Sequence record: NC_055708.1
Source: Enterobacteria phage ATK47
DNA length: 64,000 nucleotides
Strand: one strand, 5' to 3'
Position numbers and translations under genes: made by a program. The notes beneath the pieces were generated by a model. It did no database searches, was not told the DNA's origin, and saw nothing but the letters and a program-made list of their open reading frames with translations. Below are positions 37,894 to 55,959 of the stretch, one piece after another. Position 1 is the stretch's first letter; each line of letters opens with the position of its first letter.

Positions 37894-38529
37894 ATGAAAA
37901 CTACACCAATCACTATCGCTATTGACGCAATCGTAAAACAAGCTTCTTCTTTGGCTACTATGGCCAAAGTAATTAGTCAAAACCCTGCTCGTTATAATGC
38001 TATTCTAGAAACTCTTCGACGCCCAGGACTTAGTAATTATGAAAGCCGAGTAATTATTACAGGTGTTGGTAAGAATGCTAATATTGCAACTAAAGCTTCT
38101 GAGACATTTGCTTCACTCGGTATCCCAAGTATGTACTTGAACACCGGGCATTATTCTCACGGTGATGCAGGATTCATTGCGCCTAATGATGTGTTGATTC
38201 ATATTAGTCGTTCTGGTAAGACTGAAGAAATGATAGGTGTTGCTAAACATCTTCGTATGATTCGTCCTCAGGTTAAACAGATTCTGTTACATTGTAACCC
38301 TGACATTCCACAAGAATACGAAGCTCTTTTTGATTATACGTTCTGTACCGGTATCGCGGTAGAAGTTGACGAGAACTCTTTAGCTCCGACAATGTCCACT
38401 ACATTGTTGTTAGCGCTTATCGATACGTTCGCTATCAACCTTTCGTCTGAACGCGGATTTACCTCTAATGACTTCCTTAAGTTCCACCCTGGTGGTGCAC
38501 TAGGTGCCATGTTACGAGGCGAGCAATGA
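37894..38529 (+). CDS. SIS-domain sugar-phosphate isomerase (KdsD/GutQ-like arabinose-5-phosphate isomerase candidate)
   Basis: VIITGVGKNANIATKASETF...HISRSGKTEE SIS-type phosphosugar-binding motifs. Confidence 0.65.
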   Translation: MKTTPITIAIDAIVKQASSLATMAKVISQNPARYNAILETLRRPGLSNYESRVIITGVGKNANIATKASETFASLGIPSMYLNTGHYSHGDAGFIAPNDVLIHISRSGKTEEMIGVAKHLRMIRPQVKQILLHCNPDIPQEYEALFDYTFCTGIAVEVDENSLAPTMSTTLLLALIDTFAINLSSERGFTSNDFLKFHPGGALGAMLRGEQ

Positions 38530-38710: not shown

Positions 38711-40396
38711 ATGAAAAAAGCTGTTATTCTTGGTGCTGGACTGGCAACTCGTTTGTATCCAATAACGCATCATATTCCTAAGGTGCTTGTTAACTATAAA
38801 CAAGACACTATTCTGAGCAATTTGTATACAATTTATTCTGACCTTGGCGCAGATGAAATTATTGTAGTAGTTCATTCAAAATTTGCTGAAACTGTTCGAG
38901 CTTATTGCGAGCAAGAAGGGTTCAATGCGACTATTCGTACAGTTGATGAAGCGTATGGTTCTGCTTATGCTCTTGCTAAATTATACAAAGATTTAGATGG
39001 CCATAATGTAATTGTTAACTGGTGTGATATTATTCCTGATTTTGGTTCATGGTCTTGGAATGTTAACGCAATCTATGTTAAGGGTGATGAATGTCGATAT
39101 AATTTCGATGGTGAAAATATCACTAACGTAGGTTCAACAGGCGGTAATGTTGTAGGAATTTATCAGTTCAAAGACTGGGAATTCTACATGGGTTCTACTG
39201 ATGAGGAAATTCACGAATACTGCAAAGGACGTGATTTCGTAGAATTCCTTTACGGCAGTGCATTCAATAAATCAGAGCTTATGAATCTAATTGATTTAGG
39301 TGATATGCCTAAACTTGAAAAAGCTCATGAAGTTCGTGAACTTAATCGTAGTTTTAATGCAGTTGAAATTGGCGAAGAAACTGTAACTAAATTCGCGTTA
39401 ACCGAACAAGGTCGAGCTCTTCAGAAAGATGAGATTTCATGGTATTTGAAAGTGAAATCAGATTCAGTCCCTCAGTTAGTTTCTGTTAATGAAAATAACT
39501 TTGAAATGGAACGTATTAAAGGTAAGCCGGCATTTGAATATATTAAATCCAAATCAAGTCTTGCTCGTCCACAAATTGTTGATGCAATTTTAGATGCACT
39601 GAAATTCAGCACAGACACTTATTTTGTAAGTCCTGAAACTGTTCGCCGTGATTTCACTAAAGAGTTCTATACGAAAGTTATTGATCGTTGTGAAAGCATT
39701 CAGCCATTGATTGATTCATTTGGTAAAATCACACACGTGAACTACACTAAGATTGGACGTCTGAAGCCAATGTTGAAACAAGCTTTAGAACATCTTATTC
39801 GTTATCATAACCGTTCTCAGGGACAGTACTCTGTTATTCACGGTGATCCGAACTTCAGTAATACTATGATTACTGATAACGGCGAAGTCAAGTTTATCGA
39901 CCCTCGTGGATATTTTGGTGAAACCAAGATTTACGGACCAAAATTGTATGATGAAGCTAAAGTGCTTTATGCTGTTTCAGGTTATGATGAATTCAACGCT
40001 AATCCGACCTGGGGCCAGTTTATTATTGATGAAACAACTTGTAATGTGACTATTAACATCAATCCATTAGTTTACAAATATGGAAAGATGAGTTCGTTTA
40101 ACGAGTATCATCATTTGGCAGTAGCAATTATCTGGATTGCATTAGGTGGTTATTTCAAGAATAATCCACTTAAAGCGGTAGCCGCATATTATAAAGGTAT
40201 GGAACTTCTGACTAAGCAATTACGTAACATGGGCCGTGTACTTCAAGATGGCTCTATTAGTTATGACGTAGCAGAACCTGTAACGGCTACTCTGATTACA
40301 AAAAATCCTGGTAAATGGGTACTAACTGATAAAGAAACTGGTGTTTCCTATCGTCCAATCGGTGGCGATATCACTCATCAATGGGAACGAATCTAA
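38711..40396 (+). CDS. Bifunctional sugar-1-phosphate nucleotidyltransferase / APH-fold sugar kinase
   Basis: N-terminal ILGAGLATRLYPIT (RmlA/GlmU-type motif); C-terminal HGDPNFSNTMI...IDPRG (Brenner-type kinase motif). Confidence 0.65.
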   Translation: MKKAVILGAGLATRLYPITHHIPKVLVNYKQDTILSNLYTIYSDLGADEIIVVVHSKFAETVRAYCEQEGFNATIRTVDEAYGSAYALAKLYKDLDGHNVIVNWCDIIPDFGSWSWNVNAIYVKGDECRYNFDGENITNVGSTGGNVVGIYQFKDWEFYMGSTDEEIHEYCKGRDFVEFLYGSAFNKSELMNLIDLGDMPKLEKAHEVRELNRSFNAVEIGEETVTKFALTEQGRALQKDEISWYLKVKSDSVPQLVSVNENNFEMERIKGKPAFEYIKSKSSLARPQIVDAILDALKFSTDTYFVSPETVRRDFTKEFYTKVIDRCESIQPLIDSFGKITHVNYTKIGRLKPMLKQALEHLIRYHNRSQGQYSVIHGDPNFSNTMITDNGEVKFIDPRGYFGETKIYGPKLYDEAKVLYAVSGYDEFNANPTWGQFIIDETTCNVTININPLVYKYGKMSSFNEYHHLAVAIIWIALGGYFKNNPLKAVAAYYKGMELLTKQLRNMGRVLQDGSISYDVAEPVTATLITKNPGKWVLTDKETGVSYRPIGGDITHQWERI

Positions 40397-40782
40397 TGCA
40401 CCGTGTAGAAAACATGCTTAATCTTTGTTTTGATGTCGATGATTGTATAACAGAGTGGAATAACAATCGTGATTATGTGAACTTCAAACCAGACGTCGAA
40501 ATGGTGACCGCCATTAATGCCCTGTATGATGCAGGGCATACCATAACGCTTTACACTGCTCGTGGTATGAAGTCGGTAGGTCCTGGTCGTATAGCAATTG
40601 ACATTCTCCCAAGTCTGATTCAGAACTTGGAAAACATTGGTTTGAAGTACCATAATTTGCTAACACATAAACCAGTATATGATTGGATTATCGACGACAA
40701 AGCTATGCGTCCTGACGAATTCAAAGCTCTTATGAATAAAGGCGAATTCGAAACATTTAAATCGTATAAACCGAATCTATAA
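40396..40782 (+). CDS. HAD-like phosphatase candidate
   Basis: N-terminal FDVDDCIT (DxD motif); TAATG overlap with upstream gene. Confidence 0.45.
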   Translation: MHRVENMLNLCFDVDDCITEWNNNRDYVNFKPDVEMVTAINALYDAGHTITLYTARGMKSVGPGRIAIDILPSLIQNLENIGLKYHNLLTHKPVYDWIIDDKAMRPDEFKALMNKGEFETFKSYKPNL

Positions 40783-40833: not shown

Positions 40834-42003
40834 ATGCAAAAAATGAATACTTTTAAAATCGGAACGAATTTTGATTTAGCTCTTCTTGATAAAATCGTAG
40901 AGCTCAATAAAACTTATCCTAATAGCTTGATAAATGAAGTATACGGCTCTACAAGAGAAATGGCTTTTGTAGCAGCCAGACCTGATTTTAGGCTTCCTGA
41001 CGTTGACAAAAAGATGTTAGAAGACTACGTTAAACGTTGTAACGAATTAGGTATTTGCTTTAACTATACACTCAACACGATAAATCCTGGTTCAAAAAGA
41101 GAACTAGTTGAGTGGAAGAAGAAAGCTATTCAGGATTATGTTCAGTATCTTTGGTCAATAGGCGTATGGCGTATTACTATCGCTAACCCTGTTGTTATGG
41201 AAATTGTTCGTGAAGTCAATAAAGACATTGAGATTGAAGTTTCAACAATTCTACATGTTGATGCTGTAACTCAAATCAAATACTTGCACGACCAATATAA
41301 CATCAAAAAAGTCTGTTGCGGAATTCATAAGAACCGTTCAGTTTCTTTCCTGAAGCGTGCAGCAGAGTTTTGCAATAAGAACAATATAATATTTGAAGTT
41401 CTTGTAAATGAGTTCTGTTCTAATGCTGGTAAAGGGTATACAACACATTGTAGCTATCGTGACTCTTGCTATATTTTCCATAGTACTGATGTTACCGCTG
41501 ATGATGCTAAATCCTTAAATGGATATCCTATGCAGCACTGTATTAAAGCTCGTGATACAGACCCATTTAACTGGCTGAGAACTCGTTTTGTTCGTCCTCA
41601 AGATTTGAAACTTTATAATGATATTGGTATCACTCAATTCAAAGTTTCAGGACGTACAGGTAGCACAGACTACATTTTGAAAGTTCTTGAAGCATACGCT
41701 TCTGAAAAGTTTGAAGGTAATTTGTTAGAACTGTGGAAGCCTTTAGAGACTATTTTCACTCTTGAAAATGAGACTGAGTTTTCACATACAGTAAATATTG
41801 AAACCTCATTGTTAGACGGTTTTTTAGAAAAAAGGTGGTTCAGACATCCAGATTTCGATTGTGCTAATGAAATCTGCGGGACGACGTGTACATATTGTGA
41901 AAGATATTATAAACGTCAGTTATCTAAAAATGGGTTATCAGAAAACTCTATATCTATTATTGATATAACTAACTCTGATGACGCTTTGAGGTACCCGGAA
42001 TGA
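40834..42003 (+). CDS. U32-family (collagenase-like) protein, possible Fe-S enzyme
   Basis: Block similarity to U32 proteins (ANPVVMEIVREV..IEIEVS; FEVLVNEFCSNAGKGYTTHCSY); Cys cluster. Confidence 0.45.
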   Translation: MQKMNTFKIGTNFDLALLDKIVELNKTYPNSLINEVYGSTREMAFVAARPDFRLPDVDKKMLEDYVKRCNELGICFNYTLNTINPGSKRELVEWKKKAIQDYVQYLWSIGVWRITIANPVVMEIVREVNKDIEIEVSTILHVDAVTQIKYLHDQYNIKKVCCGIHKNRSVSFLKRAAEFCNKNNIIFEVLVNEFCSNAGKGYTTHCSYRDSCYIFHSTDVTADDAKSLNGYPMQHCIKARDTDPFNWLRTRFVRPQDLKLYNDIGITQFKVSGRTGSTDYILKVLEAYASEKFEGNLLELWKPLETIFTLENETEFSHTVNIETSLLDGFLEKRWFRHPDFDCANEICGTTCTYCERYYKRQLSKNGLSENSISIIDITNSDDALRYPE

Positions 42004-42239
42004 TTTCTAGAAAAACTTTTAACCACCAACTTAATGAAGAGATTTTGACTATAAAACTGAACACTAACGAACAAATTCTTAAAAAGGCCCTTATGGGCCT
42101 GTTTGAAACCAAAGCGGCTAAAGTGATTAAAGAACCTGTTCAATTGGAATACTACACTGATGCATTCCTTCATAGTGTTCTTGGAAGTATAGATTCTGAA
42201 GCTTTACGTTATATCAACATTGCCAAGAAATTCAAATAA
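42000..42239 (+). CDS. Hypothetical protein
   Basis: ATGA overlap. Confidence 0.35.
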   Translation: MISRKTFNHQLNEEILTIKLNTNEQILKKALMGLFETKAAKVIKEPVQLEYYTDAFLHSVLGSIDSEALRYINIAKKFK

Positions 42240-42281
42240 GCTTTACGAATTGAGTATATAATAAATTGTATTGAGGTAAAC

Positions 42282-42998
42282 ATGGGAAAACATAACACAA
42301 TGAAATATATCAAAGCCGCAGATTTTCAAGCCGCATTTAAAGCAGTCAATCGTGAAATTTTAGAAAATCCTGAATTCGTAACTGATTCTCGTATTGGACG
42401 TTGTAATGAAATCGGGTCCATGACAGTAGTTGTTGACAATCCATCATCATTCAAAATGACCGACCCACGTATTAACCGCATCTCTTATGAATATGCCGAA
42501 GACTTCTGGAAGTTTATGATTTCTGGTGGTACTGATGCAGAAGAAGCGTTTAAGGCATATCCTAATGTCGCTAAATTTATTTCTAAACCTAAATCAGACG
42601 CTTTGCCGGCGAACTTCAACACTTTCTATGGTCCTCGCATTGCGGCCCAATTACCAGCTCTTCTAAAAGAACTTAAAGAGAAACCTAACTCTCGAAGAGT
42701 TGTGTTCCAAATTCTAGAAAGTTCTGATCAGGCTTTGCTTGATTCGGACGAAACACTTGAATATCCATGTACTGACTCAGTGACTTATTATATTCGCGAT
42801 GGTAAGCTTTATACCCACTGTCATATGCGTTCTCAGAACTGTGCTGTTGTTATGCAGTTGGATTTTTATCTCCAAGGAAAATTACTTCATTATATCGCTA
42901 ACGAATGCGGCGTAGAAGTTGGTGATTATACTCATACCATGGTAAGTGCCCATGTGTTTGAACGTGATTTTGATTATGTTAAAGGATTCCTTGACTAA
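42282..42998 (+). CDS. 42: Thymidylate-synthase-fold pyrimidine hydroxymethylase (gp42-like dCMP hydroxymethylase, divergent)
   Basis: YPCTDSVTYYIRDGKLYTHCHMRSQNCAVVMQLDF resembles the catalytic Cys region of the TS/dCMP-hydroxymethylase family; position between 43 and uvsX. Confidence 0.6.
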   Translation: MGKHNTMKYIKAADFQAAFKAVNREILENPEFVTDSRIGRCNEIGSMTVVVDNPSSFKMTDPRINRISYEYAEDFWKFMISGGTDAEEAFKAYPNVAKFISKPKSDALPANFNTFYGPRIAAQLPALLKELKEKPNSRRVVFQILESSDQALLDSDETLEYPCTDSVTYYIRDGKLYTHCHMRSQNCAVVMQLDFYLQGKLLHYIANECGVEVGDYTHTMVSAHVFERDFDYVKGFLD

Positions 42999-43897
42999 TG
43001 GCTATTTTCCGCGTACCAATCTTGAGTATGCGGTCTTATGAAACTGGACAGTATGCTATCCTTAAGGATGGCAACTTCCAACTTCATTTGCACCGTGCTA
43101 ATCCAGGTGATGTGATTACATATCCACGTAATGCATCTGATATTAAAGAATGTGAACGTCTTTTCCCGGAATTTAAGTTTGTTCCATTATGGTATAAAGA
43201 TAACGCGTATAACACTCGTAAATATTTCTGGTCTGAAAATGAATTTGTGGTTGATTCATTAATTGCTTATTATGATTGTGATTTTCTAATAACAGATATC
43301 ACTGGATATGACGGCGCTTTTGATGTAGAATTCAATTTCAATATCACTGCAGACCCTAATAAACCACGTTTTTATATTGATGAATTCTTAAAAACCGATA
43401 TGTTGTCGGTTAATCGTTCACTTCAAACTACTGTGTTGAATGAACGTCAAAAAGAAGTGCTGGTTAACGCCGGTGCAGATGGTAATAAGATTATCGTAAC
43501 GCAGAAAGTTATACGTCCTTCCATCATGCAGCGTCTTGTAGGTGATTTGGCTCCTATTCATGTAGATGGTATTTTTCATCCATTTCGAATTAGTGATCCG
43601 TGTTATCATTTTGAACAAGTGGTTGAATGTGCAATTCAATTAGGTCAACCGCTTTATATAACTGATCCAAATAATAGCTTTGACAGAAATAAGTATCCTG
43701 AAGAAGCGCTGATTCGAATTTTTAAACCAACTAAAACTGAGTACTATCAAATTCTTAAAGGACGTCCGAAGATTCAATATTTCGAAAATCCTGAAGAAGT
43801 ATTCCATCCAGGTCTTGGTGAGTTCATCTACTTTAATGCTTTAATTTCTTCGCCGTATAATATACCTAAATACGAAGATGTCGTAATCGAGGAATAA
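42998..43897 (+). CDS. Hypothetical protein, 299 aa (occupies the T4 beta-gt position)
   Basis: ATGA overlap with the gp42-like gene; no recognisable motif. Confidence 0.4.
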   Translation: MAIFRVPILSMRSYETGQYAILKDGNFQLHLHRANPGDVITYPRNASDIKECERLFPEFKFVPLWYKDNAYNTRKYFWSENEFVVDSLIAYYDCDFLITDITGYDGAFDVEFNFNITADPNKPRFYIDEFLKTDMLSVNRSLQTTVLNERQKEVLVNAGADGNKIIVTQKVIRPSIMQRLVGDLAPIHVDGIFHPFRISDPCYHFEQVVECAIQLGQPLYITDPNNSFDRNKYPEEALIRIFKPTKTEYYQILKGRPKIQYFENPEEVFHPGLGEFIYFNALISSPYNIPKYEDVVIEE

Positions 43898-43898
43898 A

Positions 43899-44447
43899 AT
43901 GGCTAAAATTATTTTAGTAGATGGCCCAGATAATGCTGGTAAAACAACTTTCATTAATGACATAATGGAAATTAGTGAAAGATATGTAAAGATTGATTTC
44001 CCTAAACGAACAGTTGATGGACGTTTCGATGTTAAGTCTCGAAATGAAGTTGGCTGTTTCGAAACGATGTTGAATTATTTAGACCCTACTAAGATTTATC
44101 TGTTAGACCGTGGATATATTAGTAACTGGGTTTATGGACGTATTCGACAAGATGCGGACTCGGTTCTTGACGTTTATGAACAGGACTATGTTCGTCTTTG
44201 CCAAAACCATGATGTGTTCACAATTATTTTAACACGTAACGAAATGACTGAAAGTTTTGAAGACGACCTTATTACTTTGTCTTCATTCGGTTTTAATACA
44301 GTCATTTCACATTTTGAAGAGTTTGCAATTCATAACAAAATCCAAACGTATCAATTACTTAATCATGATGGTGCTAACAAAGTTATAGGATTTAATGCAA
44401 GCGAACGTAATTATTTGATTACAGAAATTATCAAATGGGCTCGTTAA
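43899..44447 (+). CDS. P-loop nucleotide/nucleoside kinase-like protein
   Basis: Walker A GPDNAGKTT; DRGY motif. Confidence 0.5.
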   Translation: MAKIILVDGPDNAGKTTFINDIMEISERYVKIDFPKRTVDGRFDVKSRNEVGCFETMLNYLDPTKIYLLDRGYISNWVYGRIRQDADSVLDVYEQDYVRLCQNHDVFTIILTRNEMTESFEDDLITLSSFGFNTVISHFEEFAIHNKIQTYQLLNHDGANKVIGFNASERNYLITEIIKWAR

Positions 44448-52227: not shown

Positions 52228-52315
52228 AATATCTCCTTGGTTACCTATTATTTATTACGCTTTATAAAATTAATGTTAGAATTAACTCTCTTATACTGAA
52301 TTGAAAGGAAAAATA

Positions 52316-52837
52316 ATGGCACACTTTAATGAATGTTCACAACTTATTTCTGGTGTTGATAAAGCAGAAGAAGCTTATTTTAATGCTCTGATTCACGAAG
52401 ATAAAGACCCACTGCAGGTAATGCTTGATATGCAGAAATCTTTACAGGTTCGTCTGGCAAATGACAAGCCTGAACATAACAAACATCCTGATGAATTGGC
52501 CACTGCTGGTGATGTTGTTGATTGGCTGCGTAATCAGAAAGATTATATTGATGATGAATTCCGTGAACTGTTGACTTCACTTGGTGGTATGAGCAATGGT
52601 GAAAAAGCCGCCAGCAGTGTATGGAAGCCATGGAAAGCACAACATGCTGAATATCGAAATCGTCGTATCGATGAACTGTCTCCTGAAGACCAGCTTGAAA
52701 TTAAATTTGAAATGATTGATATTCTGCATTTCGTTCTAAATATGTTCCAAGGTCTAGGTCTTTCGGCTGAAGAAATCTTTAAACTTTACTACTTGAAAAA
52801 CCAACACAACTTTGAACGTCAGGATAATGGTTACTAA
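52316..52837 (+). CDS. 56: dCTPase-dUTPase gp56 (MazG-like)
   Basis: MAHFNEC...DPLQVMLDMQ...ETAGDVV.WLR matches T4 gp56 as recalled. Confidence 0.95.
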   Translation: MAHFNECSQLISGVDKAEEAYFNALIHEDKDPLQVMLDMQKSLQVRLANDKPEHNKHPDELATAGDVVDWLRNQKDYIDDEFRELLTSLGGMSNGEKAASSVWKPWKAQHAEYRNRRIDELSPEDQLEIKFEMIDILHFVLNMFQGLGLSAEEIFKLYYLKNQHNFERQDNGY

Positions 52838-54711: not shown

Positions 54712-55293
54712 ATGACATGTCAATCTGAACTTCAAGAACGCGAATACCTAACAAATCTGATTGATAGCAAATTCACCCGCCAAGAACAAAACATTCTCTG
54801 GGCTTGCACCGATTCTAAGGAAGACCCAGATTTCCACTATGAATTAGACCGTCTTGTTCGTAAGCATATGACTTCTACAGTACCAGTAGAACTCTACCGT
54901 GGTGTAACTCCAGAAGAAGTAGAACGTCTTTCCCTTCTTTCTGTTGGATGCCATTGGTCTCCTGGACGAGTAACATCGTTCACAACTGATTTCGGTACAG
55001 CTCGTCAATTCTCTGGGAGATGGGAATATCAGACGTACACTATTCTTAGTCTCAGGAATGCTCCATTCATTTTTGATTACTACCAAAACATGGTTAACAT
55101 TGTACTTGCCGGAAAGAATCCTAAGCATGTTATGGAAGAAACGCGTGTTGACGTCCTAGATATGATTGAATCTGAACAAGAATACATGGTCTCAGGTATC
55201 TCTAGATTTGAGATTGTGGAAATTGAAGACTTAGAATATGACCCTTTATCTCGACTATACAAAATCATTCATTTAAAAATGTTGAATTTTTAG
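54712..55293 (+). CDS. modB: ADP-ribosyltransferase, ModB-like
   Basis: YRG (Arg), S-x-T region and E-Q-E motif; paralog of next gene; position soc-side of dda. Confidence 0.65.
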   Translation: MTCQSELQEREYLTNLIDSKFTRQEQNILWACTDSKEDPDFHYELDRLVRKHMTSTVPVELYRGVTPEEVERLSLLSVGCHWSPGRVTSFTTDFGTARQFSGRWEYQTYTILSLRNAPFIFDYYQNMVNIVLAGKNPKHVMEETRVDVLDMIESEQEYMVSGISRFEIVEIEDLEYDPLSRLYKIIHLKMLNF

Positions 55294-55350: not shown

Positions 55351-55959
55351 ATGTTTATGCCGTATAATGAATGTGAAATTGAGGAAATGGTTCGCCGTGC
55401 CCAATGCCCTGAATATCAAGATGAATTGCAGTACGAAATTGATAGTCAATTCAACGATAATGAACAAAGCATCCTTTGGCAGTGTATGGAAAACAAGCCA
55501 GACTGTATTCAACAGGAGTTAAGTTCAATCGTTCGTAGAAATTGGACGTCTTCAGTTCCTGAGACAATGTATCGTGGAATCTCTAAGAAAACTATGGCCA
55601 CACTCGATGATAAAGGCATTGGTAGTATTATTAAATTTGACAGAGTAATGAGCTTTAGTCCGGTGTTTGGTGTAGCACGTAACTTCGCTTCATATAATTT
55701 TTATGGAACATTTAATATGTTCTGCATCAAAGATGCACCATTTGCTTTCAACTTCCGTGAACATATGCTTAACATGATTCTGGCTGCGCCATCTTGTGAG
55801 TTCAATGGAGCTTTCCCTGAAGCGACAAGACGGTCTAATGCTAGACTTATATCTGACGAATGTGAATTTATGCTCCCTATAGGGACTACACTGCGTGTAG
55901 ATTCTATTATTCAAGATGGACGTTATACAATCTGGAATCTGTCTATTGTCGGTTACTGA
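55351..55959 (+). CDS. modA: ADP-ribosyltransferase, ModA-like
   Basis: YRG, MSFSP, E-C-E motifs; paralog of upstream gene. Confidence 0.65.
   Translation: MFMPYNECEIEEMVRRAQCPEYQDELQYEIDSQFNDNEQSILWQCMENKPDCIQQELSSIVRRNWTSSVPETMYRGISKKTMATLDDKGIGSIIKFDRVMSFSPVFGVARNFASYNFYGTFNMFCIKDAPFAFNFREHMLNMILAAPSCEFNGAFPEATRRSNARLISDECEFMLPIGTTLRVDSIIQDGRYTIWNLSIVGY

Follow-up and report, generated by a model that had tools for sequence, protein, structure and literature searches.

A likely core of an arabinosyl-5-hydroxycytosine DNA hypermodification cluster in Enterobacteria phage ATK47

The gene triad and its predicted promoters

The 64,000-nucleotide stretch of Enterobacteria phage ATK47 analyzed here (NC_055708.1, hereafter the window) encodes three consecutive genes that likely form the core of an arabinosyl-5-hydroxycytosine DNA hypermodification cluster. 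They are located on the + strand between the DNA polymerase and uvsX genes, an arrangement like that of T4, and code for a 238-aa protein with the fold of thymidylate synthase (TS) (42282-42998), a 299-aa protein with the GT-B fold of glycosyltransferases (GTs) (42998-43897) and a 182-aa protein related to nucleoside monophosphate (NMP) kinases (43899-44447). These open reading frames (ORFs) had been delimited in a previous interpretation based on the DNA letters and their translations (the sequence-only reading), and all three were borne out. Between 37800 and 44500, identity reaches 100% with the Mosigvirus Enterobacteria phage ATK48 (KT184310.1) and 97-98% with about 150 further RB69-like phages. 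The ATK48 record contains no coding sequence feature for the 299-aa ORF or for a 561-aa ORF upstream (38711-40396), and lists "repeat_region" features across the region of the latter. Full-length homologues of the 299-aa protein were detected in 347 phage records (137 protein clusters), evidencing that the ORFs are real genes and not chance frames.

The sequence-only reading placed an ATGA coupling between the TS homologue and the 299-aa gene; the junction is actually TAATG, with an overlap of 1 nt, and the ATGA overlap is found one gene upstream (42000-42003, ORF coordinates). The start codon of the kinase gene lies 1 nt from the stop of the 299-aa gene. An exact match to the T4-type middle (MotA) promoter motif, GCTT-N13-TATAAT, is present 20 nt 5' of the TS-homologue start (42240-42262, + strand), and a second one, GCTT-N14-TATAAT, occurs within the 3' end of the GT gene, before the kinase (43838-43861, + strand). 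Exact GCTT-N13-15-TATAAT motifs occur nine times in the window, where chance would give 0.93, with seven on the + strand. This fits MotA-type middle promoters, predicted from the motif, across the replication-gene region of the window; in addition, the record of phage SA79RD annotates middle promoters at positions matching both the TS-upstream and the kinase-upstream motif. A scan for sigma-70 promoters was uninformative (22 sites vs 27.6 in shuffled controls) and the same scan found no terminator on the + strand. In this arrangement the TS homologue and the GT would be translationally coupled behind a middle promoter, and the kinase would be served by its own.

The thymidylate-synthase-fold enzyme

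As the sequence-only reading had noted, the 238-aa ORF contains a TS-like motif (YPCTDSVTYYIRDGKLYTHCHMRSQ). The TS fold is supported by the match to Pfam Thymidylat_synt (PF00303, E=2.4e-15, 56.9 bits vs a cutoff of 24.3) as well as by matches to TS structures in the PDB, and the divergence from T4 gp42 that had been suspected is real (24.8% identity). The catalytic cysteine is retained (C163), as seen when the protein was aligned to T4 gp42 and TS structures. The label of hydroxymethylase, conversely, did not hold, since the protein is 99.2% identical to RB69 gp48, which hydroxylates dCMP, and carries Asn instead of Asp at position 186. Identity to the HY126 protein is 98.3%, in both cases across all 238 residues, and the protein matches PDB 9iqc (E=2.4e-161), one of the HY126 crystal structures (9iqc, 9ir2, and 9iqu).

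Recently, it was reported that RB69 gp48 together with a deoxynucleoside monophosphate (dNMP) kinase produces 5-hydroxy-dC in the DNA of Escherichia coli (Lee et al., NAR 2026, PMC13326640). The enzyme binds FMN, the oxygen it adds derives from 18O2, and the flavin- and O2-dependent conversion of dCMP to 5-hydroxy-dCMP (5hodCMP) was demonstrated for both RB69 gp48 and the HY126 enzyme (PMC13326640). The DNA of RB69 carries beta-D-Araf-3-alpha-D-Araf ether-linked to 5-hydroxy-dC, without a methylene bridge, as determined by nuclear magnetic resonance and mass spectrometry (NMR/MS; PMC13326640).

The active-site signature of the 238-aa protein is E160/C163/N186/D194, vs D/C/D/D in T4 gp42. With respect to E. 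coli ThyA, C163 corresponds to C146, D194 is found at N177 (dCMP specificity), E160 places an acidic residue at L143, and N186 (in MRSQN) occupies the position of D169, where T4 gp42 has Asp (MRSND). Asn at the D169 position was described as diagnostic of 5hodCMP synthases (Lee et al., PMC13326640). Consistent with this, among the 51 TS homologues found at viral loci that encode a relative of the 299-aa GT (see below) the diagnostic residue is Asn in 50, Ser in one and Asp in none. Because of the biochemistry of RB69 gp48 and of this signature, the 238-aa protein is assigned by homology as a dCMP 5-hydroxylase rather than a hydroxymethylase, namely as the RB69 gp48 orthologue and FMN/O2-dependent 5-hydroxy-dCMP synthase of this phage. 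The RB69 gp48 and HY126 enzymes share the E/C/N/D signature and the same place between the pair formed by a U32-family protein and a small ORF, and the GT; they differ from the ATK47 protein by 2 to 4 substitutions, none at signature residues, and no functional difference is expected. Membership in the T4 gp42 type was rejected based on Asn186 and the low identity. The two systems also differ in chemistry: T4 employs folate-dependent hydroxymethylation and attaches glucose to CH2-O, whereas the RB69-type enzyme performs flavin/O2 hydroxylation and arabinose is ether-joined to C5-O in the DNA.

The GT-B protein, the kinase and the proposed pathway

The 299-aa protein had been described as devoid of recognisable motifs and unlike T4 beta-gt. 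In agreement with this, no match was obtained in Pfam, NCBIfam or PDB sequences (the latter at E<=10), no BLAST similarity to T4 beta-gt was detected and T4 beta-gt was not its closest fold either. In contrast to the sequence searches, a fold search was informative and recovered a GT-B fold with two Rossmann-like domains; neither a non-transferase fold nor a loss of the catalytic cysteine from the TS homologue, the two findings that would have refuted the sequence-only reading, was observed. The earlier proposal that this protein attaches an NDP-sugar to 5-hydroxymethylcytosine (hmC) stands as regards a glycosyltransferase fold, and falls as regards the acceptor, which would be 5-hydroxycytosine (5hoC). 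The best fold matches are retaining enzymes of the GT4 family, fitting with the alpha linkage of the first arabinose, and the matches 6kih and 3c4q are identical to the published GT-B matches of the RB69/DLP3/Thanatos type. Compared to GT4-type enzymes (sucrose-phosphate synthase 6kih, BshA, PimA, and MshA), however, the protein is only 8-12% identical, about 60-100 residues shorter and without a match to any Pfam GT model. The EX7E motif of GT4 enzymes is present in the window protein as E267-x7-E275, but across an alignment of 71 sequences a majority carries Glu only at the second position, the first being unconserved in this family.

The closest known counterparts are RB69 gp46:47, DLP3 gp79 and Thanatos TH1_063, a putative first arabinosyltransferase. 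The 299-aa protein is 98-99% identical to the two RB69 fragments gp46 and gp47 joined end to end; the RB69 reference is split in two, a fact attributed to a sequencing error (Lee et al., PMC13326640), whereas the ATK47 ORF is intact. The Thanatos-2 orthologue is 47.5% identical. Sequence comparison revealed no similarity between the 299-aa protein and RB69 gp3, and the window lacks a gene for the second GT (gp3 type, PDB 9iqz). Some of the orthologue records (the IME341, LC53 and Thanatos-2 set) are labelled "RNA polymerase binding protein", and in the record of Kosakonia phage Kc304 the name listed for the match is "cysteine desulfurase". These names look like propagated mis-annotations, as neither suits a GT-B fold.

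The reading of 43899-44447 as a P-loop kinase-like gene was upheld by motif alignment and profile matches, which point to an NMP kinase of the thymidylate kinase (TMK) superfamily (phrog_761, 2.4e-45), 98.9% identical to its orthologue RB69 gp45. Like the TS homologue, the GT and the kinase also show 98-99% identity to their HY126 counterparts. In an alignment of 28 homologues the P-loop residues G9 and K15 are invariant (G9..K15-T16-T17), and the DR motif D70-R71 followed by S75-N76-x-V78-Y79 is invariant or nearly so. The family profile matches SP-beta YorR (2.3e-9), vaccinia thymidylate kinase (5.9e-9) and many cellular TMKs, with which the protein shares the P-loop GxxxxGK(T/S), the DR motif plus S-N-x-V-Y and a similar size (profile E values of 2e-9 to 1e-5). 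Unlike these enzymes it belongs to a separate phage family, phrog_761, which is always GT-linked; it scored 16 bits against the dTMP kinase model TIGR00041 (cutoff 83.25) and did not match Pfam PF02223. Based on these similarities the 182-aa protein is classified as a TMK-superfamily NMP kinase of a separate family, and it is probably a kinase for 5hodCMP or a derivative thereof.

The three genes were further compared in 58 viral loci retrieved with a profile of the GT, in which TS homologues, U32 proteins and the kinase were scored within flanks of ±6 kb. With few exceptions, a TS homologue directly precedes the GT, and the GT and the TMK-like kinase are neighbors in nearly all loci. T4-like phages and unrelated metagenomic ones alike keep the triad; at the distant metagenomic loci L033-L046 nothing else is conserved, and a gp3-type GT is absent from the retrieved flanks of distant triad-only loci. 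As this GT family travels only with hydroxylase-type TS enzymes and never with the hydroxymethylase type, 5-hydroxycytosine is supported as the acceptor. In two different metagenomic phages the GT and the kinase are fused into one ORF of 605-606 aa (L061:5164-6984 and L062:2594-4411), with the phrog_3891 GT at residues ~50-380 and the phrog_761 TMK-like kinase at residues ~410-603. By joining both functions, this fusion makes it modestly more likely that the first arabinose goes onto the nucleotide.

Altogether, it is likely that the triad constitutes the core of the cluster in this RB69-like Mosigvirus and that it acts as follows. The TS-fold enzyme would hydroxylate dCMP at C5 with flavin and O2 to yield 5-hydroxy-dCMP, as shown for the 98-99% identical orthologues. 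The adjacent TMK-like kinase may then phosphorylate 5hodCMP, redundantly with a dNMP kinase of the gp1 type, and the product would be converted to 5hodCTP and polymerised in replacement of dCTP, the latter being cleared by a gp56-type dCTPase. Subsequently, the 299-aa GT-B protein, the putative first alpha-arabinofuranosyltransferase, would place the first alpha-linked arabinose from UDP-arabinofuranose onto the 5-hydroxyl, a step proposed because of its fold, synteny and comparative genomics. A second arabinose would be added by an RB69 gp3-type GT encoded outside the window. The simplest reading of the 182-aa protein is that of a dedicated 5hodCMP kinase inherited within a mobile TS-GT-kinase triad. 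The pathway was published in 2025-2026 for phages that are 98-99% identical; what is new here concerns the first transferase, which is still putative, the compound on which the kinase acts and a hypothesis on the U32 protein. Arabinosyl-5-hydroxycytosine shields phage DNA from restriction enzymes, CRISPR-Cas and DNA glycosylases, and thus bears on phage therapy and phage engineering. For this DNA the analysis chiefly corrects annotations: 5-hydroxy-dCMP synthase is the name that fits the 238-aa gene, in place of dCMP hydroxymethylase or thymidylate synthase, and the unannotated 299-aa ORF of ATK48 merits the label putative DNA arabinosyltransferase.

Several observations weigh against the roles proposed for the GT and the kinase. 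No transferase activity of the 299-aa family has been shown in the accessible literature, and a paper of June 2026 still terms both GTs "putative" (PMC13390438). In the study of Lee et al., 5hoC-DNA was not arabinosylated by single purified DLP3 GTs, and by the authors' own account the first sugar may be attached either to the mononucleotide or to DNA (PMC13326640). The GT is acidic, with an isoelectric point (pI) of 5.1 vs 9.05 for T4 beta-gt; as the DNA-acting gp3-type GT is also non-basic (pI 6.3), this is weak evidence against DNA binding. The kinase shown to phosphorylate 5hodCMP is RB69 gp159, not gp45 (PMC13326640), and synthesis of UDP-xylose out of UTP and xylose-1-phosphate has been reported for the Thanatos orthologue TH1_063 (PMC12838424).

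The most probable alternative, which we nevertheless consider unlikely, is that 5hodCMP is arabinosylated by the GT before it reaches the TMK-like kinase, so that arabinosyl-5hodCMP is the substrate of the kinase and the nucleotide already carries its sugar when the polymerase incorporates it. The adjacency and fusion of GT and kinase, the inactivity of the single GTs on 5hoC-DNA together with the acceptor question left open by Lee et al., the existence of another kinase, gp159, that already handles 5hodCMP, the acidic pI of the GT and the NMP-binding DR motif retained in the kinase are all in line with it. Conversely, later arabinoses are added onto DNA, as reported for DLP3 gp76 and gp77 acting on RB69 DNA (PMC13326640), and the same holds for the known T4 glucosylations; unglycosylated 5hodC enters DNA when gp48 and gp159 are expressed (PMC13326640); a gene fusion denotes a shared pathway, not necessarily consecutive steps; and an arabinosylated nucleotide is unreported in the accessible literature.

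It is improbable that the roles of the two GTs are swapped, with the gp3-type GT attaching the first arabinose to 5hoC-DNA and the second one being left to the 299-aa GT. This possibility takes into account that the GT selected by He et al. for crystallography was the gp3 type (HY126 crystal 9iqz) and that the 299-aa family is without demonstrated activity, but it is the 299-aa type that is universally conserved, tightly linked to the hydroxylase and, in the mono-arabinosylated phage Thanatos, the only GT type present (Lee et al., PMC13326640), while the gp3 type is missing both from the window and from the flanks of the distant triad-only loci. In addition, according to the summary given in PMC13216743, a Bas46 mutant lacking the arabinosyltransferase Aat, which may be either of the two GTs, was viable.

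Slightly less probable still is that the 299-aa protein forms or modifies a UDP-sugar, as a UDP-pentose pyrophosphorylase like TH1_063 or a 2-epimerase-like GT-B protein, without transfer to the base. The in vitro synthesis of UDP-xylose by TH1_063 (PMC12838424), the 47.5% identity of the Thanatos-2 orthologue and the presence of UDP-GlcNAc 2-epimerases among the top Foldseek matches speak for such a function; against it, and making it a minor rival, GT-B is not a nucleotidyltransferase fold and the cluster already has a dedicated uridylyltransferase, the AfhE orthologue.

Finally, the T4 gp42/beta-gt scheme, with hmC produced by a divergent dCMP hydroxymethylase and then glycosylated in DNA by the 299-aa protein, is highly improbable: it draws on the TS fold, the catalytic Cys, the dCMP-specifying Asp, the T4-like location and the first assignment of arabinosyl-hmC to RB69 (Thomas et al. 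2018, where ORF045c-050c of RB69 go unmentioned), but that assignment is now called erroneous (PMC13390438), the biochemistry of RB69 and HY126 already refutes the scheme for the orthologues (in RB69, the product of the 99%-identical enzyme is 5hodCMP, the added oxygen deriving from O2, and NMR/MS showed an ether-linked sugar without methylene), and Asn186, the distance from gp42 and the lack of beta-gt similarity leave an analogy with T4 that is positional only.

Donor-sugar genes, the U32 protein and other neighbors

Upstream of the TS homologue, the + strand carries genes for an isomerase, a kinase/uridylyltransferase and a phosphatase that match the published route to UDP-arabinofuranose. 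The first is a SIS-domain arabinose-5-phosphate isomerase, orthologue of RB69 gp55 (37894-38529; Pfam SIS 4.1e-10, phrog_5670 1.5e-116), a type proposed to catalyze the first step toward the arabinose donor (PMC13326640). The 561-aa protein (38711-40396; Pfam NTP_transferase 3.7e-9) is bifunctional, with an N-terminal NTP-transferase domain and a C-terminal kinase domain that gave weak matches to kinase-family Pfam models, and is the orthologue of RB69 gp52:53/HY126 AfhE; the kinase and uridylyltransferase activities of AfhE lead to UDP-arabinofuranose, according to Lee et al. citing He et al. (PMC13326640). It is followed by a HAD-type phosphatase, orthologue of RB69 gp51/HY126 AfhF (40381-40782; phrog_1238 5e-43), with its role as given in PMC13326640. 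Further downstream, a dCTPase-type NTP pyrophosphohydrolase of the T4 gp56/RB69p028 type (52301-52837, + strand; phrog_173 1.8e-45) would remove dCTP and supply dCMP, by analogy with T4 and with Table 1 of PMC13326640.

Next to the phosphatase, a U32-family Fe-S protein, orthologue of RB69 gp50, is encoded at 40834-42003 (+ strand; Pfam Peptidase_U32 PF01136, 7.4e-11, 42.2 bits vs a cutoff of 22.4). Ten Cys are invariant across 23 phage U32 homologues, down to 45% identity. RB69 gp50 is listed only as a "sugar or heterocycle reductase" (Lee et al., PMC13326640). In other systems, the U32 proteins RlhA (ho5C2501 in 23S rRNA), TrhP (ho5U in tRNA) and UbiU/V are required for O2-independent hydroxylations that need prephenate and Fe-S clusters; prephenate was shown to be the oxygen donor for the UbiU/V pathway and proposed as such for RlhA and TrhP (PMC5727448, PMC6599085, PMC10990095), and in vitro activity has not yet been reconstituted for any of them (PMC10990095). 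The phage protein shares with them the U32 domain and, with RlhA, invariant Cys in the U32 core and C-terminus, and pyrimidine C5 hydroxylation is the chemistry for which RlhA is needed on rRNA. Conversely, it falls in no characterised subfamily (weak UbiU match, E=9e-4) and its substrate would be a deoxynucleotide. By analogy, and in view of a chorismate mutase gene that is translationally coupled to U32 in sister phages (see below), this suggests an O2-independent, prephenate-dependent cytosine C5 hydroxylase like RlhA, TrhP and UbiU/V.

The distribution of U32 bears on this suggestion. Among 32 distant loci, considered within the ±6 kb flanks, 26 contain TS without U32, five U32 without TS and none both, one being truncated (Fisher p=3e-5, uncorrected for phylogeny and with the five U32 loci representing about four lineages). 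The U32-only loci are L054, L055, L057, L061, and L062, seen as 6-kb flanks, so that a TS gene may exist elsewhere on the contigs; in the first three of them the order is MazG-like pyrophosphatase, TMK-like kinase, GT, and U32. U32 was found in 220 phage records; those listed include phages of Enterobacterales as well as the Shewanella phage Thanatos-2. The genus Acinetobacter is outside the ten most frequent U32 genera, though 57 Acinetobacter phages carry the GT, and some E. coli phages also lack U32. Phage DLP3 lacks it as well (Lee et al. table), yet builds on the same arabinosylated 5-hydroxycytosine base (PMC13326640), and therefore U32 adds no known chemical feature.

Based on this pattern it can be tentatively hypothesized, at somewhat less than even chances, that there are two alternative routes to 5-hydroxycytosine, one O2/FMN-dependent through the TS-like enzyme and one O2-independent through U32, with the GT and the TMK-like kinase, fused in two phages, behaving as one functional unit. 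Given the O2 requirement of the TS-like enzyme, a backup that depends on prephenate and serves in anoxic hosts would be coherent. If so, the U32 route would let gut phages modify their DNA under anoxia, which would explain how an O2-requiring modification pathway works in the gut; U32 would be the only hydroxylase in some non-T4-like phages lacking TS within ±6 kb, and a DNA precursor would be the first of its kind as a substrate of prephenate-dependent U32 chemistry. No proposal linking U32 or chorismate mutase to this modification was found in the accessible literature, which excludes key papers on the system (He et al. 2026, Mahler et al. 2025).

A genuine AroQ chorismate mutase overlaps the U32 stop in LC53, Thanatos-2 and the loci L007, L008, L011, L013, L024, and L025 (Pfam CM_2 1.7e-11 and 8.2e-8; profile vs PDB 1ybz 1.3e-15). 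In ATK47 this position is occupied by a 79-aa ORF, orthologue of RB69 ORF049c (42000-42239, + strand; phrog_8601), for which a chorismate mutase identity was rejected at the sequence level (13% probability in hhalign against the chorismate-mutase-like class); it had neither a Pfam match nor a PDB profile match. The LC53 chorismate-mutase-domain protein (L066:6158-6502) begins with MRRINHTMNE, which resembles the M..INHKLNEE of the 79-aa-ORF class, and has its mutase part at the C-terminus. The small ORF after U32 thus seems to have been remodelled between lineages.

Outside the cluster lie two adjacent paralogous ORFs (54712-55293 and 55351-55959) that resemble the ModA/ModB pair of T4, each with a match to phrog_832, a family of RNA polymerase ADP-ribosyltransferases.

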